NCBI GenBank assembly: GCA_964468125.1 | Contig: CAYXVF010000004.1 | Location: 26,605-90,604 of the forward strand | Length of the DNA stretch: 64,000 nt | Direction: 5' to 3' | Origin: an uncultured Bdellovibrionales bacterium | Lineage (GTDB): Bacteria; Myxococcota; XYA12-FULL-58-9; CAYXVF01 | Part shown: positions 712-9,538 of the stretch, piece by piece | How positions within the stretch are numbered: position 1 is the stretch's first letter | Layout of the letters: each line of letters starts with the position of its first letter | Position numbers and translations under genes: made by a program | Notes under the pieces: generated by a model | What the model saw: only the letters and a program-made list of their open reading frames with translations | What the model was told of the DNA's origin: nothing | Databases searched by the model: none

Positions 712-2829
712 TCAGAGCTCGGGAGCCACGGCGATTCGGGCCGCGAGCAAAGGGTCGGGCGTACTGCGCCGAAACCAGCTGACGAGCTCCACATCGTTCA
801 CCTTCCCGTCGCCGGCGACGTCGCGATACTGGCGTCGAGCGTGCACGTCGTGCCGGAGGCGGACCGCGAGTGCCTCAAAGGCCGGCTCCCCCCCGATCGC
901 CTCGCGATAATGACTCGCCGGACGGCCCGCAAACCACGCCACTACGTCGCGCGAGTCCCCGTCCGGGGCATCGAGGGCTGCGCGAATGGCGCGTGCGGCG
1001 GCGTCAACGGCCTTCGGTTTTGCTTCATCTAGCAGGACGGCATGATCCACCTGGACTTCGGCCCCGACGAGCTCGAGCCCGAGTCGTCGAGCCGCAACGG
1101 CGGAATGCGCGGCGAATGCGTCGCCGGAGCCCCGCGCCTCGTTCTCTTCTTTGTAAGGCTGGTGAGCGCGATCATAGACCGCGCGGATCAGCTCCCCGGT
1201 CGTGCCCGGCGCAGGCGGCATCGCACGAAACATGTTGAGCCACTTAGGAAGACCCACGGGGGTGAATTGGCCGGCGTCGTCGCTCGTGAGCTGCCAGCCT
1301 ACCGGCTCTGGGAGCTTGCGAATCGCCGCCCGAAAACCCGCGGCGTCTCGCGCATACTGCGCGCGTTCGCGATGGGTGAGGGCTGGCCCATCCGGACTGG
1401 TGCTCGCCGCGTTCAGTCGCGGTCTCCAGCGCGCGGCAAGGGCGATCGCCTCCCGGTAGAGGCTCTCGAGCTTCGGCGCGTTCGACTCGCGAATATAGCC
1501 AGCGGCCGCGATCGCTTCGAAGTCCGGAATGGCGTCGATCTCCGAGAAACCAAAGGCGACGAATCCGGCCATGTGATGGCCGAGCTGCGACTCCGCCACG
1601 CGGCGTGCTCTCGCACGGCTGCCACCTGCTCGAAGCACGAGGGCGACGATGTCATCGAGGTGTCCGATGCCGTGCATCAGTGTCCCCGCCTGGAAATCGC
1701 GCTGGTAGATGCTCGTGGGAAACGGCGCCTTTTCCATCGCCGACTTCCAAACCGTACGCGCGAGCTTTGCGCGTTCCCCGTCGAGCTTCCCGGCCTGCTG
1801 CGCCGCCTTGACGTCGGATTTGATTTCGTCGGCGGTGGGGCGCGTGCGCGACGAAATGGAACGTCGCAACACCCGACGAACCGCGCCGCTCTTCTTCACA
1901 TCTTTCGGCCAGTGAGCGTCTAGGTCCCGAATGAGGGCGTGGGACCAGAGCTCCGCTCCGCTCGTCCCTAGCGCACGACCGCGCATCGTCTTCATCGGCA
2001 CCAGAGCGAAATCCGCGAGCGCCTTCGAGCTGCGCCCCTTGCCGCGGACGTCCGTCGCGATCGTGTCGAGGAAGAGTTGATCGACCTCGTCTCGCTTGAG
2101 CGCCTTACCGGACTTCTCGTGGGCACTCTGCAAAACGCATTCGAACACGCTCACCATGTGCTCGACATTTGCCGCCCCGACGGGGTCGACCGAGCAGTGA
2201 GGTGCCTCGTAAAGCGCCGCGCCGGCGATCAGGACGCGCGGTGAAACCCCTTTCACGCTCTTCGCAACGATCCGTGCTGGAGCGAGGCGCGAGACGAAGC
2301 CTTCCTGGAATTGGTAGAGGAGCGCGCGAAGAGACGCGCCAGCCGGATCGAGAGTGGGGATCACTGCACTGCGCAAGGCCTCACGTTTGTTTTCAGGCAC
2401 ATAGCGGTCAATCAATGTCAGGAATCGCTGTTGTGTTTCGTCGAGCCGACCAAACGCTTGCGCTAGATCGTCGCGAAGCTTCGCGGATCGGCGGTCGAGA
2501 GTCGAATCCGAGCGTTCGAGCTCGAGATCGTCAGCGAGGTCGCGCAATCCCGAGCGCAGTGTGCGCAGCTCGTCGGCGGTCGAGTGGAGAGCGCGCAACG
2601 CCTCGAGCATGCGCTCGACCACCGTGCTCTTCGCCTCACCTGCCGCCTCTTCTACGGCGACGCGCAGAGCACGTGTGCGTGTTTCAGCGCCGGTTGCGAT
2701 CATGATGTCCCTTGCTCTCCACGTGTCGATGAGTGTTCGGCCCTGCGAGCCCGTCTCGCTAGTATGACCCTGGAGTGAACGGCACGCAGCCCCCAACGTT
2801 CGAATTATTGCGCGCGAGCGCGGGTCCAA
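712..2829 (-). CDS. Large hypothetical protein (705 aa), last gene of a three-gene minus-strand operon.
   Basis: 705-aa ORF lies 28 nt downstream of the preceding minus-strand gene. Composition is protein-like. No recognisable catalytic motif. Confidence 0.5.
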   Translation of the reverse strand: MDPRSRAIIRTLGAACRSLQGHTSETGSQGRTLIDTWRARDIMIATGAETRTRALRVAVEEAAGEAKSTVVERMLEALRALHSTADELRTLRSGLRDLADDLELERSDSTLDRRSAKLRDDLAQAFGRLDETQQRFLTLIDRYVPENKREALRSAVIPTLDPAGASLRALLYQFQEGFVSRLAPARIVAKSVKGVSPRVLIAGAALYEAPHCSVDPVGAANVEHMVSVFECVLQSAHEKSGKALKRDEVDQLFLDTIATDVRGKGRSSKALADFALVPMKTMRGRALGTSGAELWSHALIRDLDAHWPKDVKKSGAVRRVLRRSISSRTRPTADEIKSDVKAAQQAGKLDGERAKLARTVWKSAMEKAPFPTSIYQRDFQAGTLMHGIGHLDDIVALVLRAGGSRARARRVAESQLGHHMAGFVAFGFSEIDAIPDFEAIAAAGYIRESNAPKLESLYREAIALAARWRPRLNAASTSPDGPALTHRERAQYARDAAGFRAAIRKLPEPVGWQLTSDDAGQFTPVGLPKWLNMFRAMPPAPGTTGELIRAVYDRAHQPYKEENEARGSGDAFAAHSAVAARRLGLELVGAEVQVDHAVLLDEAKPKAVDAAARAIRAALDAPDGDSRDVVAWFAGRPASHYREAIGGEPAFEALAVRLRHDVHARRQYRDVAGDGKVNDVELVSWFRRSTPDPLLAARIAVAPEL

Positions 2830-2856
2830 AAAGAAACTCGCGAATTTTGATCCGGA

Positions 2857-4392
2857 TCACAGACTTCCGAGCCAGGCTCGCCGCCACTGGGAGCGGCGCG
2901 AGCCCCAGCCGTCACGTCCGGCAAAGAGCAGGTCGAGCGCCGGATAGATGGTACTCGGGTCCCTTTGGTGTGCGCGAAGCACACGCTGCACCACCGGATG
3001 AGAGCGAGGGAGCTGGAGACGCGGCTCGCGACCCGGCAAGGGACGCAGTGGCAGAGGCCCCCGAGGTACGAATTGGACGCGCGCGGCTCGACTCGCGCGG
3101 GGCTCGAGTTGTGGGATCCGGTAGGCGCCGCTTTCCAACAGCTCCTGCAAGCGACGCCGAAAGGCGTTCTCTTCGGGCGTGAGAAGGTCGCTGGCGATGC
3201 GGCGGCCGCGGATCAGTCGCGCCCAAAGGCCGCGGATGCGCTCACTGCCATCGGTCCAATGCTCCCGCGCGACGCGTTTCAGTCGCTCGAAGGTGTTCCC
3301 TTCACCGAAAGGTACGTGTCCCACGATGGGCACGCCGAGGATCTCCGTGACCAGGCGCCGGCCGGCAGCATCGAGTCGCAGAGCATGAGGCGATACGCCC
3401 GCACGCGACTCGAGTCCCGCGACTTCGATCGGCGCTCGTCGCGCCCGCTCACGCAGGTCCTGCACCGTCAGTGAGGAGGCGCCCGCGGTAGGAAAAACCC
3501 GCGCTTGTCCGAGGATCGCCACATCGTGCCGTTCGATTGCGCGTGCGAACAAGAGCCGGCGAGCCAGCGTGCGCTCGTGTTCGGGCAGCCCGTCGAAGAC
3601 GCGAGACAAGCGCGCCATCGTGCCCTCACGAAAGTCCCGGACACGCAGGATCGCCTCCTCCTGGCAGCTCGGATCCCTCGAATGGATTACCGCGTCGTGA
3701 GCGACGCCCCCGGCGGGCTGGCTGTAGCGCTCCGCTCGAAGCACTTCGCAATCGATCCAGCGAATGCACGAGTAGTCCTCGTCGACCAAGAGCCGGACCC
3801 TGCCCTCGAAACGGGAATCGTGCAGGTCGCCCTCGAGCGCCCCCCCGGTGTGAGCCGGCGCCTCGTCCACCCGCTCCCCGTCGAGGGTCACCGGACGCCG
3901 CGAGTAGCGAAGATGCTCGGTGAGCAGCTCGAGCTCCCCCCGGCCCTTCGTGCGGAGCTGCAGCCGCGCCACGCAGCAGCAGCCGCTGTCGCGCTTTTCG
4001 GAGCGGAGCACCCGGGTTCGCGGCCCCACTTCGAGCCGCCACCGGTTGGGTCCGTCGTCGAATTCCATTTGAAATCCGAGGTCGGTGCCAAGGGCCAGCC
4101 AGATGAGCCCCCCACGCTCTTCGAGGGACAGCAGCGCGGAGTAGCGCTGCGCCGGCGAGCGGTCCGGTGACAGGGTGAGAACGAGCAGCTCTATCAGCTC
4201 CGCGGAGACTTGAGCGCCAGGCGCTGCGATCACGAGCTCTCGAGCGCTCCGGCGGATCTCGAGGGACTCCGCCCCTGCCCCCATTAGAGCTCGCGAAAGC
4301 TCGATCGGTTTCATCGCCGCACGGGAAAGCTGTGATTCCGTAAGCTTTCGGATCGCCGCTTCGACATCGACGCTCAGGAGCCCGTCCTTCAT
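2857..4392 (-). CDS. Hypothetical protein (511 aa), translationally coupled to the upstream GHKL/transglutaminase gene.
   Basis: Start codon overlaps the upstream stop (ATGA at 4389-4392). No recognisable motif. Confidence 0.5.
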   Translation of the reverse strand: MKDGLLSVDVEAAIRKLTESQLSRAAMKPIELSRALMGAGAESLEIRRSARELVIAAPGAQVSAELIELLVLTLSPDRSPAQRYSALLSLEERGGLIWLALGTDLGFQMEFDDGPNRWRLEVGPRTRVLRSEKRDSGCCCVARLQLRTKGRGELELLTEHLRYSRRPVTLDGERVDEAPAHTGGALEGDLHDSRFEGRVRLLVDEDYSCIRWIDCEVLRAERYSQPAGGVAHDAVIHSRDPSCQEEAILRVRDFREGTMARLSRVFDGLPEHERTLARRLLFARAIERHDVAILGQARVFPTAGASSLTVQDLRERARRAPIEVAGLESRAGVSPHALRLDAAGRRLVTEILGVPIVGHVPFGEGNTFERLKRVAREHWTDGSERIRGLWARLIRGRRIASDLLTPEENAFRRRLQELLESGAYRIPQLEPRASRAARVQFVPRGPLPLRPLPGREPRLQLPRSHPVVQRVLRAHQRDPSTIYPALDLLFAGRDGWGSRRSQWRRAWLGSL

Positions 4393-7300
4393 GCGGCCTC
4401 CTCGAACACGGCCGCAGCAGCAGCCTCCCGAAGTCGGGCAGCGTTTCTCTCACACGCCACCGACTGGCTGATGAGCCAGTCGACCCAGGCAAAGAGGGCC
4501 CGGTCCGGATTGTGTTCGAGCAAAGCGATCCGCGCGCGCACGTCCGGATGGTTCGGATTGATGACGATTGAACGAGAAGGGATTTGAATCGCATTCCCGA
4601 GGCGAAAGGGCGTCAGATCGAACTCGGTGAGCGCGCGGTCACCGAGGGCCGCCGACCAGGCGCAGCTGATGCCCGCATGTCTTTCGAGGAAGGGATTGAG
4701 CACGCGCGCGAGCGCGTTCGGGAGTGGGTGCACGTTGAGCGCTTCAATGCTCCCGAGGTCGACAACATCGAAGCTCTGCCGCACCAACGCCCCAAAGTAT
4801 GTGTCGTCGAGATCGAGAACCGGATGGCCACGTTGCGCGGCGGACCTCGACAGAAGGGAACGTCGGTTACCCGCCCAGAGCCGTCCACGCCGACTTCTCT
4901 CGAGCGCATCGACGAGAGACAGTGGTGGGCCACTCAGAGTCGGGAGGACGCGTCGATGTCCCAGAGCTGAGATCCCCTTCCACCCGGCACTCCCGCGCAT
5001 GAGCTCGCGTACCATGCCAGCTACGGCCGCCCGTTGCTCCGCTCCCTCGCCTCGGCGCTCGAGCGACTCATCGACCCGGCCTCGGCGCCAGAGCCATCCC
5101 AACAGAAGCAGCGCCAACGCGGGGAGGATCACGAGCGCGGAGAGCCAAAGGGGTGGCTCTCCCCGGGCCCCATCGACAGGCTCCTCATCGGTCGCGGCCC
5201 CAAAGGACGCGCGGTCCGCCGGCGGCGAGCTTGGCTCGGTCGACGCCTCGAGCCTGCCCGGCGTCGTGAACGAACCGGTCCCGGCGGCTGGGTCCACTTC
5301 CGCCCCTGGCCGCACCTCGAAGCTTTCCGTAGCGGGCCCAGGGCCCGGCCCGACGTCGATCGCCAGCCTCTCGACATCGACAGGGTCGCCTGCCACCAGG
5401 TCCTCCGCCGAGAGATCGTCTGCTGCGGAAATGCTCTCTGGCGCGGGACCGCTGACCGCCAGACGCGACGGTGGGGAGCCGACGGGCCGACCCGTGGCAT
5501 CCGCGACGCGCCAATGCCCGTCCTCGTAGTATTCGGTCCAGGCATGAAGGCCGCTGCGGGCTCGGCCTCCGATCGACACCATCCCCACCGCGAGGCGAGC
5601 GGGGATCTCCAGCCGACGCAGCAGCAGCACGTTCAGGCCGTTCTTGACGTCGCAGTCTCCCGCCTCTGTGCTGATCACCCGTTCGGTCCAGAGGCCCGGG
5701 TGGCTCTCGAAACGAGCGGCGGTCTCAGCGCTCACGTCGTAGGCGATGCCGCGCCGAACCTCGCGGGTGACCGTCTTCACGGCCTGTCTTGGCCGCTGTC
5801 GCCGAGCGCGGTTGACGACCCGAAGCCACTTTCGCGAAAGCGGCGCGCGCGCGGGCAACGTGGACGCCTGCGGCGCGAGATCGCCGGTTTCGCCGATGCG
5901 GTAGCGCAGGACATTCATTCCCCGAGCCCGGAGGTAGACACTCGCCTCTCCGACTTCGTCGAGCCACACCCGCACGACCGGCTCGCCATTCCAGGTGACG
6001 CTTTCGGGATCCACGCGATAGCCGGTGGGAACCGGGAGCACGAGCGGTCCAAGAACCGCGCCGACCGCCATTTCGACGTTGAGGCAGTCGCTCCCGCAGC
6101 TGAAATCGGGATGTACGACTCGCGACCGGAACCCGCTTTGTTGCCAACCATTGGCTGGGTCGTAGTCGTCGAGGGAGAGCGCACGAAAATAGAGGATTTC
6201 TTCGCTATCAACGGTCAAGGACCAGTCGCTGCCGCCGCGGCTCGGGACGTCGATCGTAGCACCACGGTAGCCAGTGATCGGACGGTAAGGCTGCCCGAGA
6301 CTTGGCGCCTTAGCTCGCTCGATAGGGGCTTCACGGGGGGTCACCGGCTCGAGTGCGGGCGACGGTCGGTTCAGCATCACCAGCGCCACCAGCGATGCGA
6401 CGAGCACGAGCGCCCAGCCAGCGAGCACCGCGCTCATGGCCGGTCCACCGAGGGCCCGCACGGCGGCGCGTCCCCGGTCCATGAAGCGCTCGAGCAGGCT
6501 TCGCGGCGCAACACCTTCGATCGCGTGCTCCACCAGCCGGTCGACCCGTGCCCGGGCGAGCCGCAGGAGGCGCCGTAAAGCGCGGCTGTCCACCGGCTGG
6601 TCGCGCGAGAGCACGACCTCGAGGGCGTCGCTGTTTAGGATCACCACCGGAGCGAGTCCCTCGCCCGGCGATGCGGGCCTGCGGCTCGTTGCGTTCGGCT
6701 CGAGCTCCTCGAGGACCGAGACCGTGCTGACCCACAGACCGCGCGCGTAGAGCTCCACCCGCGGCTCGGTCCCGAGCCCAACAACCCCCTCCGCCTCCCG
6801 CGACTGGAACGACAAGGTCACCGGTCCATCCAGTGTCATCGCCTCATTGATGGAGCGGCCGTTGTAGAAGACCGGGAGCGGGCGTCGGCGCCGACCGGCG
6901 CAGCGCAGGTAGCGACAGTAGTGGGAGAGCCGCTCGCCGATGCGCGCCTGGAGATCTCCGTCGTCGGGGCGACGCGGGCGGCACAAAACGATGTGTGTTC
7001 CAGGCTCATCGGAGACAGGCTCGACCGGGTCGATCCGCGAGAGGTCACCGGCGCATTCCACGGCCCAGCGCGTCTCCGAGCCGCTCTCGATCCGAAAACG
7101 CGTGGGCTCGAATCGGAGAATCGACCAGAAGCCGACCCCGAAGCGCCCGGCAGATTCGCTGGTGCCCTCCTTGCTGGACGCGTAGAGGCGGAAGAGGAAG
7201 CGCCGGGCGTCCTCGAAGCTCATTCCGGAGCCGTCATCGCGAAAGGAGAGCGTCAGGCCGTCAGCGCTCTCCCCCACCTGGACTTCGATCCGGCTCGCGC

Positions 7301-7406
7301 CCGCGTCACGGGAGTTTTGCGCCAACTCCCGCAAAAAAACGAACGGATCATCACCGTAGCGTTCGCCCTCGTGCAGGGCTCGAGACCTGAAGCGCTGCGC
7401 GTCCAT
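4389..7406 (-). CDS. Membrane protein with an N-terminal GHKL (Hsp90/MutL-type) ATPase domain, two TM helices and a transglutaminase-like Cys-His-Asp domain (1005 aa).
   Basis: N-terminus shows the GHKL boxes: LRELAQNSRDAGASRIEV (N-box), DDGSGMSFEDARRFL (G1), GRFGVGFWSILRF (G2). A hydrophobic segment AVLAGWALVLVASLVALVML follows. The transglutaminase-like core is GDCDVKNGLNVLLLRRLEIPARL...GLHAWTEYYEDGHWRVADAT. A second TM segment is LWLSALVILPALALLLLGWLW. Confidence 0.65.
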   Translation of the reverse strand: MDAQRFRSRALHEGERYGDDPFVFLRELAQNSRDAGASRIEVQVGESADGLTLSFRDDGSGMSFEDARRFLFRLYASSKEGTSESAGRFGVGFWSILRFEPTRFRIESGSETRWAVECAGDLSRIDPVEPVSDEPGTHIVLCRPRRPDDGDLQARIGERLSHYCRYLRCAGRRRRPLPVFYNGRSINEAMTLDGPVTLSFQSREAEGVVGLGTEPRVELYARGLWVSTVSVLEELEPNATSRRPASPGEGLAPVVILNSDALEVVLSRDQPVDSRALRRLLRLARARVDRLVEHAIEGVAPRSLLERFMDRGRAAVRALGGPAMSAVLAGWALVLVASLVALVMLNRPSPALEPVTPREAPIERAKAPSLGQPYRPITGYRGATIDVPSRGGSDWSLTVDSEEILYFRALSLDDYDPANGWQQSGFRSRVVHPDFSCGSDCLNVEMAVGAVLGPLVLPVPTGYRVDPESVTWNGEPVVRVWLDEVGEASVYLRARGMNVLRYRIGETGDLAPQASTLPARAPLSRKWLRVVNRARRQRPRQAVKTVTREVRRGIAYDVSAETAARFESHPGLWTERVISTEAGDCDVKNGLNVLLLRRLEIPARLAVGMVSIGGRARSGLHAWTEYYEDGHWRVADATGRPVGSPPSRLAVSGPAPESISAADDLSAEDLVAGDPVDVERLAIDVGPGPGPATESFEVRPGAEVDPAAGTGSFTTPGRLEASTEPSSPPADRASFGAATDEEPVDGARGEPPLWLSALVILPALALLLLGWLWRRGRVDESLERRGEGAEQRAAVAGMVRELMRGSAGWKGISALGHRRVLPTLSGPPLSLVDALERSRRGRLWAGNRRSLLSRSAAQRGHPVLDLDDTYFGALVRQSFDVVDLGSIEALNVHPLPNALARVLNPFLERHAGISCAWSAALGDRALTEFDLTPFRLGNAIQIPSRSIVINPNHPDVRARIALLEHNPDRALFAWVDWLISQSVACERNAARLREAAAAAVFEEAA

Positions 7407-8245: not shown

Positions 8246-8487
8246 GAACCTGCCTCACTAGCCCGAGAGTCTGACGCGTTTCATCGGCGCTGCTCCCGGT
8301 CCGGTTGCGGGAATCAGTCTAGACAACCGGTGCAACCGTTACTCGCCCGGGAGGAGCGGTCGTGCTCTCTGACGACACACCGCCGCTCCCCTTCAGGCGG
8401 CGCGCTTCTAACCGCGACCGTTTCTTTTGGGAACCTCAAAAGCGCCGCGTAATGCAGGGTTTTACGCGAGCAGATTCCTCAATGAAT

Positions 8488-8877
8488 TCATACCTTTTCG
8501 TTACGCCGTGCCGCTTCCAGAAGCGCGACGCGACGTTCTAAATCGCGGATTTGGCCCGCGAGGCCGCCGATGTCGCGGGTTTGCGCCACCTGCAGGGATG
8601 CGAGAAAGGACGTGACCGAGTCCTCGAAACGCCGCTCGAGCCCGACGCGCATGTCCTGCAGCTGCGCGGCGTTCTCGCTCACCCACGCCGGAGCCTTCGG
8701 CAGACGGGCGAGGAGCGCATCGAAACGCACTTTGCTCTTGCCATTATCCTCGGTCGCTTCCGAGCTCTCGCCTTCGACCTGCGCTTCACGTTCCACTTCA
8801 ACACTCGACATGGAGTCCTCCTCACGGGCGCGACGGGGAATCCGCATAACGCCCTGCGTCACCACTGATGTCGACAC
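8488..8877 (-). CDS. Hypothetical coiled-coil protein (129 aa). Phasin-like is possible but not supported.
   Basis: ORF with an acidic N-terminus and a heptad-like C-terminus (IRDLERRVALLEAARR). No family assignment possible. Confidence 0.35.
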   Translation of the reverse strand: MSTSVVTQGVMRIPRRAREEDSMSSVEVEREAQVEGESSEATEDNGKSKVRFDALLARLPKAPAWVSENAAQLQDMRVGLERRFEDSVTSFLASLQVAQTRDIGGLAGQIRDLERRVALLEAARRNEKV

Positions 8878-9325
8878 ATTGCGTCATTTCGTCAAGGTGC
8901 TTTTTGGCGCACTTGATCCATGCCGTTTTCGTAAGCACGCTCTTCGTGGCACGATCGAATCCAAAGCGACGAGCGCGCGCGAAACGGTTGAAGATGAATC
9001 AGCGGCGTGCCGCGATGTTCTGCGGAGCGCACAAAAGCCCCCTCGGGAGAAAAAAATGAGCGAAGCGACGGCATTTCAAACCCATCACAAGTCCTCGCCG
9101 CGGATCGAAGCCGAGTGGCGCGAAGCACACGCTCTGCTGAACATTTTGAAGGTGCCCGGTAGCAATGACCCACTGCCCGATCGCCTGCGCGCGCTCCTTC
9201 TCGCCCGAACGCCGGTGCTCTCCGATCCGGAGCGCGGTTGAGGCCTGGCCGTAGCGACAGCTGCCTTGTCCGCCCGATTCTCTTCTGACATGTAACGGCG
9301 CCTACGACGGAAAGGACCCGGAGAA

Positions 9326-9508
9326 ATGGCAACGGTCAAAGAGGATATGGTCGTCAAATACCAAACCACCACGGACGGGGATGTCGAAGAAGCGCAGCTC
9401 TCCGCGGGTGACGAGCTCTACGTCGTCAAGGAGTGGGAGCGCCACTACCTGGTTCGGGACGACGACGGCCACTACTACAACATCGAGAAAGACAAGCTCG
9501 ACAACTGA
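9326..9508 (+). CDS. Small conserved-looking hypothetical protein (60 aa) immediately upstream of alaS.
   Basis: GGAG ribosome-binding site 7 nt upstream of the ATG. Protein-like composition (MATVKEDMVVKYQTTTDGD...). Confidence 0.45.
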   Translation: MATVKEDMVVKYQTTTDGDVEEAQLSAGDELYVVKEWERHYLVRDDDGHYYNIEKDKLDN

Positions 9509-9538
9509 CGAGGCCCACCGGGCCCGAGACTTTCGACC

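Follow-up and report, generated by a model that had tools for sequence, protein, structure and literature searches.

Genes 1 and 2, encoded on the minus strand of the window (the whole stretch of 64,000 nucleotides that was analysed), are a real, conserved and uncharacterised module of two proteins. Our preferred reading, held tentatively and at a little short of even confidence, is that the two proteins form an asymmetric Hsp90-like clamp, which would couple cytoplasmic ATP to a periplasmic, envelope-modifying transglutaminase (TGase). It builds on the domain identities, the topology bias, the conservation of both active sites, the identity of gene 2 as a degenerate paralogue, and its strict linkage to gene 1. 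The locus is laid out as follows:

4389..7406, minus strand: gene 1, a 1005-aa ORF with Pfam HATPase_c_3 and Transglut_core; predicted membrane protein combining a GHKL ATPase of Hsp90 type with a TgpA-like transglutaminase
4389..4392, minus strand: ATGA stop/start overlap of genes 1 and 2 (translational coupling), seen in the sequence
2857..4392, minus strand: gene 2, a 511-aa ORF; gene 1 paralogue, predicted to be soluble and catalytically dead, without the TM-TGase-TM insert
712..2703, minus strand: gene 3, 663 aa from ATG 2703; the longest ORF, from TTG 2829, has 705 aa
7490..8245, minus strand: SLT lytic transglycosylase with a signal peptide; Pfam SLT, E 1.5e-22

The three ORFs lie on the minus strand and have the limits given in an earlier sequence-only reading of this DNA, and the motifs quoted there were found in the translation. 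The ATGA overlap it had described between genes 1 and 2 (GCATGAAG) is also present, with GAGGAGG before it, and across loci the commonest spacing of the two genes is a -4 overlap. The SLT lytic transglycosylase gene does lie upstream on the same strand, as had been said, its end being 83 bp from gene 1; the Pfam SLT match reaches 79.8 bits (cut-off 21.3) and the translation contains YVESYF, with the catalytic Glu-Ser motif.

ATPase, membrane passage and transglutaminase domain of gene 1

Gene 1 can be divided into eight parts, all on the minus strand:

6972..7406, minus strand: GHKL (Bergerat) ATP-binding domain, predicted cytoplasmic; residues 1-145; invariant motifs, Foldseek
6507..6959, minus strand: Hsp90/MutL-type middle (transducer) domain; residues 150-300; Foldseek, invariant R268
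6372..6446, minus strand: TM helix 1 (TM1); residues about 321-345; hydropathy, K/R bias, helix in the model
5877..6299, minus strand: predicted periplasmic β-sandwich; residues 370-510; AF2 strands with pLDDT > 90, Cys437/Cys441, LPVPTGY motif
5496..5834, minus strand: predicted periplasmic transglutaminase-like core; residues 525-637; Cys585-His621-Asp636, Pfam PF01841
5151..5486, minus strand: disordered Pro/Ala/Ser/Gly-rich linker; residues 641-752; pLDDT about 30-35
5082..5150, minus strand: TM helix 2 (TM2); residues about 753-775; hydropathy 2.3, K/R bias, helix in the model
4392..5072, minus strand: α/β C-terminal domain, predicted cytoplasmic; residues 779-1005; pLDDT about 90-96

The translation of gene 1 has ELAQNSRDAGASRIEV at residues 27-42, DDGSGMSF at 57-64 and GRFGVGFWS at 87-95, and Pfam HATPase_c_3 matches residues 25-97 (E 4e-11; 43.5 bits, above the gathering cut-off of 25). 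E27, N31, D34, D57, G59, G61, G87, G90 and G92 occur without exception in 114 gene 1 sequences. With its N-box (ExxxN, containing the Mg-binding Asn), DxGxG box, Gly-rich lid and modelled Bergerat fold, the protein can be assigned to the GHKL ATPase superfamily. The AF2 model has a mean pLDDT of 83.8 and clear domain boundaries, and the top 50 Foldseek matches of its ATPase part are mostly members of the Hsp90 family (TRAP1 7exp_A, E 4e-15), with a few of MORC2. The alignments to the N-terminal and middle domains of Hsp90 extend over 346-398 columns, and R268, F200, G207 and G223 of the middle domain are invariant in 114/114 sequences; as modelled, the ATPase part folds like these two domains of Hsp90. 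The sacsin-type GHKL domain model (NCBIfam NF047352) reaches 46.8 bits with a cut-off of 50, and Pfam SACS is listed for several gene 1 homologues. A sensor histidine kinase was considered and rejected, HATPase_c scoring 24 bits against a cut-off of 26.4, HisKA giving no match and the fold being Hsp90-like.

The closest folds belong to genuine chaperones (TRAP1, HtpG, Hsp90 and GRP94), and genes 1 and 2 might encode a membrane-tethered Hsp90-like chaperone, the ATPase pair handling clients which the TGase-fold domain would process or cross-link after export. Such clients would be cytoplasmic or membrane-inserting proteins that are folded, held or handed over, and the two halves would act on the same client in sequence, without one regulating the other. 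The sacsin-type similarity is consistent with this and the operons of MoxR chaperones with transglutaminases provide a precedent (PMC12067865). We nevertheless consider a chaperone unlikely: client-binding or co-chaperone features were not identified in genes 1 and 2, no secretion-system genes were consistently near them in the neighbour survey, and a dead paralogue together with an enzyme between TM helices would suit regulation equally well or better.

Lys and Arg residues number 3.5 before and 1.7 after TM1, and 2.0 before and 4.0 after TM2; over 63 family members the bias favours an N-in, loop-out, C-in arrangement. Both this bias and the AF2 model agree with the earlier proposal that the TGase and ATPase domains lie on opposite sides of the membrane, the TGase domain being predicted to be periplasmic. 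A further hydrophobic stretch (residues 441-459) is a β-strand in the AF2 model, not a TM helix. It falls within the β-sandwich, in which C437, C441, P458, P460 and G462 are conserved; the Cys pair thus lies in the predicted periplasmic loop.

The transglutaminase-like core carries GDCDV at residues 583-587, HAWTEYY at 621-627 and DGHWRVADAT at 629-638, and Transglut_core (Pfam PF01841) matches residues 536-637 (E 3e-11; 43.9 bits against a cut-off of 23). The C585/H621/D636 triad is invariant in 114 homologues, and this Cys-His-Asp arrangement in a papain-like core is that of the transglutaminase-like superfamily, to which the domain can be assigned. Among solved structures, TgpA (6g49, E 7e-7) gives the best match to the family profile of the periplasmic module. 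Transglutaminase-fold domains may be peptidases, deamidases, cross-linkers or non-catalytic binders. Since the fold thus serves several chemistries or mere binding, it does not by itself fix the chemistry of the gene 1 domain; the invariance of the triad points to an enzyme and not just a binding domain. The linker that follows, ahead of TM2, varies from 23 to 174 residues across the family, with a median of 57.

Past TM2, the tail of gene 1 comprises about 233 aa, somewhat shorter than the roughly 260 aa first estimated. P822 is invariant and D930, in an RDVDL motif, nearly so. Permissive scans of the tail gave no Pfam or PDB sequence match, and similarity to the dimerisation domains of Hsp90 or MutL was not detectable in sequence searches. 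By hhalign the C-terminal half of gene 2 is a homologue of this domain, and the domain appears to be a novel α/β domain belonging to no known family.

Altogether 423 homologues of gene 1 were found, and nearly all of the best 120 of the 423 have both the ATPase and the TGase domain. The same architecture was found at full length in more than 120 proteins and in at least 216 GTDB species, mainly of Myxococcota and Acidobacteriota, and no named family or paper describing it was found in Pfam, PADLOC, NCBIfam or the literature, in accordance with the sequence-only reading. As that reading had itself recognised, two separate genes joined by a frameshift could mimic such a fusion. This is excluded, since in over 100 independent homologues of full length (925-1161 aa), which come from many samples, a single ORF encodes the two domains and the two active sites are invariant; the GHKL-TM-transglutaminase-TM-tail fusion is therefore genuine, and the chance of an assembly or frameshift artefact is negligible. 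Because cultured strains, Paraliomyxa miuraensis and Nannocystaceae ST9 among them, also carry family members, experiments on the gene 1 family are feasible.

The partner gene and the genomic neighbourhood

The 511-aa product of gene 2, which could not be placed from its motifs, was identified through profile alignments as a degenerate relative of gene 1. Residues 24-266 of gene 2 align with residues 20-295 of gene 1 (hhalign probability 97.8%, E 9e-13) and residues 272-486 with residues 790-975 (82%, E 1e-5), as against E values of 0.1-0.4 for reversed and unrelated controls. Gene 2 is a collinear paralogue of the cytoplasmic parts of gene 1 without the TM-TGase-TM insert, and 43 of 44 gene 2 proteins have no TM helix. 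At the position of the Mg-binding Asn, absent in 40/40 sequences, R, L, A, M or F is found, and the Asp and Gly boxes have not been kept either. A few members still match HATPase_c models weakly. Lacking the GHKL catalytic motifs, gene 2 is a predicted pseudo-ATPase. The remote-homology searches on the three proteins have in this way placed gene 2, and assigned none of them to a well-described system.

In 73 of 80 loci gene 2 comes directly after gene 1, on the same strand, and six of the seven misses are contig ends, so that the linkage amounts to 73 of the 74 loci having downstream sequence. The conserved unit is two genes, not three. The earlier idea of a three-gene operon does not hold beyond the closest relatives of the window (four contigs), to which the linkage of gene 3 is confined; gene 3 stands behind gene 2 in loci L081-L083, but none of the 80 other loci has it, not even L001-L004, where the SLT-gene 1-gene 2 arrangement is the same. 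The likeliest start of gene 3 is ATG 2703, which has a GGAGAG Shine-Dalgarno sequence and gives 663 aa, in agreement with the length of an NCBI-derived database entry and of the homologues; the 705 aa of the sequence-only reading are probably too long. The protein, in which that reading could place no motifs, has no recognisable fold: the AF2 model is all-helical (pLDDT 69) and has no Foldseek match in PDB or BFVD. Homologues are few, 5 by word search and 57 by HMM.

Gene 3 could still be a client, substrate or effector partner of genes 1 and 2 in a three-component system. The order of the three genes is kept down to identities of 40% (gene 1), 29% (gene 2) and 47% (gene 3), all three share one strand, and a terminator-like site between genes 2 and 3 was not found. 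Apart from the missing gene 3 at so many loci, what makes such a system improbable is that the distant homologue P0129 has a context without genes 1 or 2, that the core domain of gene 3 recurs within unrelated giant proteins, and that with the ATG 2703 start genes 2 and 3 are separated by an AT-richer gap of 153 nt with its own Shine-Dalgarno sequence.

Besides gene 2 no gene is consistently linked to gene 1: the 41 close same-strand neighbours represent 68 Pfam families, and they are varied housekeeping genes (AlaRS, TonB receptors, SDR, ABC-F and acyl-CoA dehydrogenase, for example). MoxR or DUF58 genes are not recurrent in this Pfam survey. Each of the 80 loci has an ordinary chromosomal context, with synteny kept within the clade of the window, and no link to defence islands was seen at any of them. 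The gene 1 family has no plasmid matches; viral contigs match at the level of the GHKL domain only, with no full-length relatives.

These observations bear on the suggestion, made from the sequence, of a conflict or defence module. In such an anti-phage system, akin to the GHKL defence protein TmtA of Tiamat, the TGase-like peptidase would be the effector. Tiamat is typically set in a defence island. The PADLOC model of TmtA does match gene 1 (E 6e-12), as the only PADLOC hit, through a sacsin-like GHKL N-terminal domain, but the match covers residues 6-99, about 95 residues, of a 1486-position profile, and TmtA proteins are about 1400-1650 aa long by profile length. With the housekeeping context and the domain-level phage matches described above, assignment to Tiamat was rejected. 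GHKL ATPases and TGase-like peptidases are both known from conflict systems (PMC3710099, PMC7159879), and an effector of this kind would here face the periplasm. The defence reading is weakly refuted and we regard it as very improbable.

Envelope remodelling, the other function suggested from the sequence, is the best lead remaining: the periplasmic module resembles TgpA, and SLT-domain ORFs lie within 10 kb of the module in 13 of 80 loci. In L001-L004 and L058 an SLT gene immediately precedes gene 1; the association is confined to a few clades, has arisen about 4-5 times independently, and is not seen at most loci. SLT enzymes release peptidoglycan fragments, and their genes near the module in some clades would also suit an outside-in sensor, in which the TGase-like domain binds, and perhaps cleaves, an envelope ligand such as these fragments and signals through the ATPase clamp to a cytoplasmic target. 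The transmembrane architecture of gene 1 would permit signalling either way. The full catalytic triad is, however, invariant, and neither in the module nor among linked genes is there an output domain (DNA-binding, kinase or other), which makes a sensor improbable.

Proposed control of a periplasmic enzyme

In the clamp model that we prefer, genes 1 and 2 would be a self-contained, chromosomally inherited two-protein machine with gene 1 in the inner membrane. The periplasmic enzyme of gene 1 would in effect be inserted into the linker that joins the ATPase module to the C-terminal domain, and gene 2 a duplicate of this ATPase and C-terminal scaffold that has lost the ATP- and Mg-binding residues and is made in step with gene 1 via the ATGA overlap. 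Heterodimerisation, transmembrane coupling and the envelope substrate are the parts that we infer. The two proteins may pair via their cytoplasmic domains in the manner of Hsp90 or MutL protomers, with one ATPase active and one dead, and ATP binding and hydrolysis by gene 1 would close and open the clamp. TM1 is attached to the ATPase module and TM2 to the C-terminal domain, so that motion of the clamp would shift the two helices relative to each other and thereby switch the periplasmic TGase on or off, or position it (inside-out control). The long disordered linker ahead of TM2 speaks against this, as it could dampen the motion rather than transmit it. The substrate is probably a component of the cell envelope, which may be peptidoglycan peptides, envelope proteins or a surface polymer. 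In its most specific form, which we consider possible but doubtful, this would be the first membrane-spanning clamp of the Hsp90 type, a live/dead GHKL heterodimer whose ATP cycle is relayed by two TM helices to gate a periplasmic TGase that cross-links or trims the envelope.

The periplasm has no ATP and envelope enzymes must therefore be controlled from inside the cell. To our knowledge, energy-dependent control of such enzymes uses ABC (FtsEX) or AAA+ (MoxR) engines. A GHKL/Hsp90-type engine in cis with a periplasmic transglutaminase would, if confirmed, be a new control mechanism for this ATP-less compartment, and would make gene 1 the first Hsp90-like protein to be integrated in a membrane. 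This would also bear on the role of the essential TgpA-type transglutaminases and on their repeated coupling to chaperone-like ATPases, a functional link that is made explicit and testable here because the coupling is a covalent fusion.

Comparison with known systems

Gene 1 shares with the Hsp90 family (HtpG, TRAP1, Hsp90 and GRP94) the Bergerat and middle domains, and its GRFGVGFWS resembles the Hsp90 signature (GxxGxG lid). By analogy, an asymmetric two-protomer cycle like that of Hsp90 is plausible for genes 1 and 2. Gene 1 differs in being membrane-integrated, with a periplasmic enzyme inserted past the middle domain, in a C-terminal domain unrelated by sequence, and in its obligate, catalytically dead partner. 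It is not Hsp90 sensu stricto: the NCBIfam model PRK14083 of the HSP90 family reaches 34 bits (cut-off 455) and HtpG 15.5 (cut-off 371), and Pfam HSP90 is not among the matches listed at E ≤ 1.

MutL-type heterodimers (e.g. MutLα) are paired paralogues with GHKL, transducer and C-terminal domains and unequal ATPase competence. Genes 1 and 2 are likewise a paralogous pair with unequal ATPase sites, and both give weak matches to the MutL N-terminus; in contrast to MutL, there is no endonuclease or DNA-repair context and gene 1 is membrane-embedded. MutL itself was rejected, as the best match (TIGR00585) scores 31 bits vs 180, in the N-box only, and MutL cut-offs in NCBIfam are 180 or more.

In LapD-LapG a c-di-GMP receptor controls a TGase-fold protease, and in FtsEX-EnvC an ABC ATPase controls peptidoglycan amidases. 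The likeness is one of functional logic only, a cytoplasmic nucleotide state being relayed via TM helices to a periplasmic enzyme; the cytoplasmic modules are non-homologous, and here enzyme and transducer are one polypeptide with a GHKL ATPase as the engine. LapG is a TGase-like protease (as cited in PMC10318531).

TgpA is a periplasmic, membrane-anchored and essential transglutaminase with a proposed role in the cell wall (PMC3507681). TgpA of Pseudomonas aeruginosa (PA2873) is an inner-membrane protein in which TM helices flank a periplasmic loop with the TGase domain and the C-terminal part is cytoplasmic, a layout that is also predicted for gene 1; TgpA has a genetic tie to a chaperone-like ATPase (operon, PMC3507681). 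The operon of a MoxR chaperone-like ATPase, a DUF58 protein and a transglutaminase is a recognised theme, and MoxR1 helps export a cell-wall hydrolase (PMC12067865). Gene 1 does not belong to the TgpA family proper, having neither the DUF3488 multi-TM N-terminus nor DUF4129 nor MoxR and DUF58 partners; Pfam and permissive tail scans gave no DUF3488, DUF4129 or DUF58 match. It has two TM helices whereas TgpA has six, its ATPase is of the GHKL/Hsp90 type and fused in cis whereas that of TgpA is a separate AAA+ MoxR, and its partner is a dead GHKL paralogue. On analogy, MoxR-DUF58-TgpA would be the closest functional parallel of genes 1 and 2.

Gene layout and anatomy of gene 1

The four genes considered here are arranged in the window as follows.

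Features of the locus (window coordinates)
712-2829, minus strand: gene 3, 705 aa as the longest ORF
2857-4392, minus strand: gene 2, ORF of 511 aa
4389-7406, minus strand: gene 1, ORF of 1005 aa
7490-8245: SLT lytic transglycosylase gene, 83 bp upstream of gene 1

Every motif quoted for gene 1 in the sequence-only reading was found in the translation. Genes 1 and 2 are joined by an ATGA overlap with a GAGGAGG Shine-Dalgarno sequence just 5' of it. The most likely start of gene 3 is the ATG at 2703, which is preceded by GGAGAG and gives a protein of 663 aa, matching the NCBI-derived entry and the homologues in length. This start leaves an AT-richer gap of 153 nt between genes 2 and 3 (window 2704-2856). 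The length of the gap (153-157 nt) is kept in two of the closest relatives, L081 and L083, and its sequence is conserved in the closest relative only. A weak sigma-70-like match overlaps the gene 3 start; in general, the promoter and terminator scan gave matches at background level, and searches of the window for Rfam families and tRNAs found neither. The next recognisable gene past SLT encodes alanyl-tRNA synthetase. The approximately 1.3 kb between these two divergent genes (8246-9538) has a G+C content of 0.61-0.62 vs. approximately 0.66-0.68, and its ORFs at 8570-9241 (plus strand) and 8892-9332 (minus strand) have no Pfam match.

In gene 1, Pfam HATPase_c_3 (residues 25-97, E 4e-11) and Transglut_core (residues 536-637, E 3e-11) both match above their gathering scores. 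The AlphaFold2 model, calculated from an alignment of 114 sequences, reaches a confident mean pLDDT of 83.8 and divides the protein into eight parts.

Parts of gene 1 in the AlphaFold2 model (residues)
1-145: Bergerat-fold ATP-binding domain
150-300: second α/β domain
321-345: TM helix 1
370-510: β-sandwich
525-637: transglutaminase core
641-752: disordered Pro/Ala-rich linker
754-775: TM helix 2
779-1005 (window 4392-5072, minus strand): compact C-terminal α/β domain

The first 50 Foldseek matches in the PDB are mostly Hsp90-family chaperones (TRAP1, HtpG, Hsp90, GRP94), with E-values down to 4e-15 over approximately 350-390 columns, that is, the N-terminal and middle domains; a few MORC2 entries appear from rank 35 on. 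The middle-domain residue R268 is invariant (114/114) and could be the counterpart of the γ-phosphate-contacting Arg of Hsp90. The best NCBIfam match is a sacsin-type GHKL domain, at 46.8 bits vs. a cut-off of 50. Readings of gene 1 as a histidine kinase or as MutL were rejected in a membership test. Given such structural neighbours, the protein might be a chaperone acting on exported clients, which we consider unlikely. The best solved relative of the periplasmic family profile is Pseudomonas aeruginosa TgpA (6g49, E 7e-7).

Hydropathy and the Lys/Arg counts of 63 family members (3.5/1.7 around TM1 and 2.0/4.0 around TM2) support a predicted N-in, loop-out, C-in topology, and thereby the earlier placement of the transglutaminase across the membrane from the ATPase. 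The predicted periplasmic loop also contains a conserved pair, Cys437/Cys441. The C-terminal domain has no match in Pfam or among PDB sequences. In this domain Pro822 is invariant, and Asp930, which belongs to an RDVDL motif closing a β-strand, is nearly so; this may be a site for a metal or phosphate. The gene 2 counterpart of this domain has no RDVDL motif, and L404 and E408 are conserved instead.

Distribution of the fusion and the nature of gene 2

Protein searches returned 423 relatives of gene 1, and nearly all of the best 120 are approximately 925-1160 aa long and carry both Pfam domains, so the fusion seen in the sequence-only reading is genuine. When one genome per GTDB species was scanned, 216 species had a relative. 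Most of these are Myxococcota (Nannocystaceae, Polyangia, Enhygromyxa and the cultured strains Paraliomyxa miuraensis SMH-27-4 and Nannocystaceae ST9, loci L016 and L041), and the others are Acidobacteriota (Aminicenantes, Thermoanaerobaculia, Vicinamibacteria) and a few MAGs under other labels. The GHKL residues E27, N31, D34, D57, G59, G61, G87, G90 and G92 and the transglutaminase triad C585/H621/D636 are invariant in the 114-sequence alignment, and therefore both enzymatic centres are under selection. A frameshift artefact joining the two regions is excluded, since the same full-length two-domain protein with both centres invariant is widespread. The parts are of known kinds, an Hsp90-like GHKL ATPase and a TgpA-like transglutaminase, and databases already contain the fusion, annotated generically as "ATP-binding protein" or "transglutaminase domain-containing protein". 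Literature searches for a GHKL-transglutaminase fusion found no paper, and no family model for it was found in Pfam, NCBIfam or PADLOC.

Gene 2 had been described as having no placeable motifs, and it indeed has no match in Pfam, NCBIfam or PADLOC; profile-profile comparison of a family of 44 members from related loci now identifies it as a paralogue of gene 1. Residues 24-266 of gene 2 match residues 20-295 of gene 1 (probability 97.8%, E 9e-13, 234 columns), and residues 272-486 match 790-975 (probability 82%, E 1e-5). The periplasmic middle portion of gene 1 gave no match, and all controls (reversed alignments, gene 3, the periplasmic part) gave E-values of 0.1-0.4. As the two matches are collinear and the middle is unmatched, gene 2 corresponds to gene 1 minus approximately residues 296-789, the TM-transglutaminase-TM insert; a TM helix is absent from 43 of the 44 members. 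The position of the Mg-binding Asn is never Asn (0/40), the Asp and Gly boxes are lost, and a nearly invariant R[H/Q]xAL motif is found instead. HATPase_c models are weakly matched by 6 of 40 members, and the family profile touches the MutL N-box. Judging from its sequence, gene 2 is a catalytically dead paralogue of gene 1.

Neighbours of the gene pair

In 73 of 80 loci, a gene 2 HMM detected a gene 2 immediately following gene 1 on the same strand. The modal spacing is a 4-nt overlap, and six of the seven loci without a match are contig ends. No other gene is consistently linked: 68 Pfam families were found among 41 close same-strand neighbours, none recurring beyond two. Recurrent clusters nearby include TonB receptors, SDRs, ABC-F proteins, acyl-CoA dehydrogenases and Ser/Thr kinases. 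ORFs with an SLT domain lie within 10 kb in 13/80 loci. As in the window, such an ORF immediately precedes gene 1 in L001-L004 and L058, and in L005 one immediately follows gene 2. The density of these ORFs, approximately ten per Mb, was judged to be above that of a typical genome, which is suggestive and comes from only four or five clades.

Two sets of loci have conserved surroundings of their own. In one Myxococcota clade (L021, L024, L060, L061, L067, L068) the pair is flanked by Pfam-less genes of approximately 514 aa upstream and 137 and 394 aa downstream, with an 800-1000-aa SLT-domain protein on the opposite strand and TonB-dependent receptors upstream. In L033, L034 and L044 (Aminicenantes and a Clostridia-labelled MAG) the surrounding block is another one, all on the same strand, with genes of approximately 170 aa and 243 aa upstream and of approximately 265, 465 and 250 aa downstream.

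The suggestion that the locus is a conflict or defence module was rejected, because the neighbours vary, no full-length gene 1 relatives were found on IMG/VR viral contigs or plasmids, and the match to the PADLOC model of the Tiamat defence protein TmtA covers residues 6-99 only. Phage-derived IMG/VR contigs (L084-L091) match gene 1 at the GHKL N-box and lid only (residues approximately 24-90); viral genomes hence also encode Sacsin/Hsp90-like GHKL domains, in proteins of other architecture.

The proposed three-gene operon is reduced to a conserved pair, genes 1 and 2, as none of the 80 GTDB loci has gene 3, not even L001-L004 with their shared SLT-gene 1-gene 2 order. A protein of approximately 640 aa near gene 2 in L001-L004 was rejected as an equivalent of gene 3 (hhalign probability 0.1%). 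The closest relatives keep the order gene 1-gene 2-gene 3 followed by an antisense 275-aa gene, down to identities of 40, 29 and 47% for genes 1, 2 and 3, respectively, as a three-part system would have it; such a system is nevertheless highly improbable, and gene 3 is treated as a clade-specific neighbour outside the conserved machine. One distant homologue, P0129, is located elsewhere without genes 1 or 2.

Gene 3 had no match in Pfam, NCBIfam, PADLOC, PHROGs or PDB sequences, and its all-helical model (pLDDT 69) had no significant match in Foldseek searches of the PDB and BFVD. Five relatives were found by word search. The conserved core (approximately residues 110-548, with invariant LGHHMAGF, DDxGQF and YxEEN motifs) defines a "dark" family of just 57 HMM matches among 1.84 billion representatives. 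The core is a module in proteins of 1000-5936 aa (P0129-P0184) that are nearly without known domains, and eleven larger homologues (946-4699 aa) gave stray matches only, namely weak Fic and DUF5636 matches in P0141 and one to GGDEF in P0145.

Proposed mechanism and its precedents

Gene 1 thus combines an apparently live Hsp90-type ATPase module, predicted to be cytoplasmic, an apparently live enzyme of the TgpA-type transglutaminase fold in a predicted periplasmic loop, and a second domain past TM2, again predicted to be cytoplasmic. It is accompanied by an obligate, co-translated paralogue that lacks the loop and is predicted to be ATP-blind. The two proteins would dimerise with each other as GHKL protomers do. 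TM1 would hang from the middle domain and TM2 from the C-terminal domain, and the ATP cycle at the single live site may shift one helix relative to the other and so control the periplasmic enzyme. The same two-sided layout could serve an outside-in sensor, which we regard as very unlikely. For the preferred ATP-driven control of the enzyme, an envelope component is favoured as the substrate because of the relationship to TgpA and the neighbouring SLT genes. Two features are unusual: the membrane integration of an Hsp90-type ATPase that has an enzyme inserted between its domains, and the pseudo-ATPase partner.

The nearest functional precedent is found in the MoxR-DUF58-transglutaminase operons, including the essential TgpA (PMC3507681, PMC12067865). 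LapD-LapG and FtsEX-EnvC are precedents for the gene 1-gene 2 pair in logic only.
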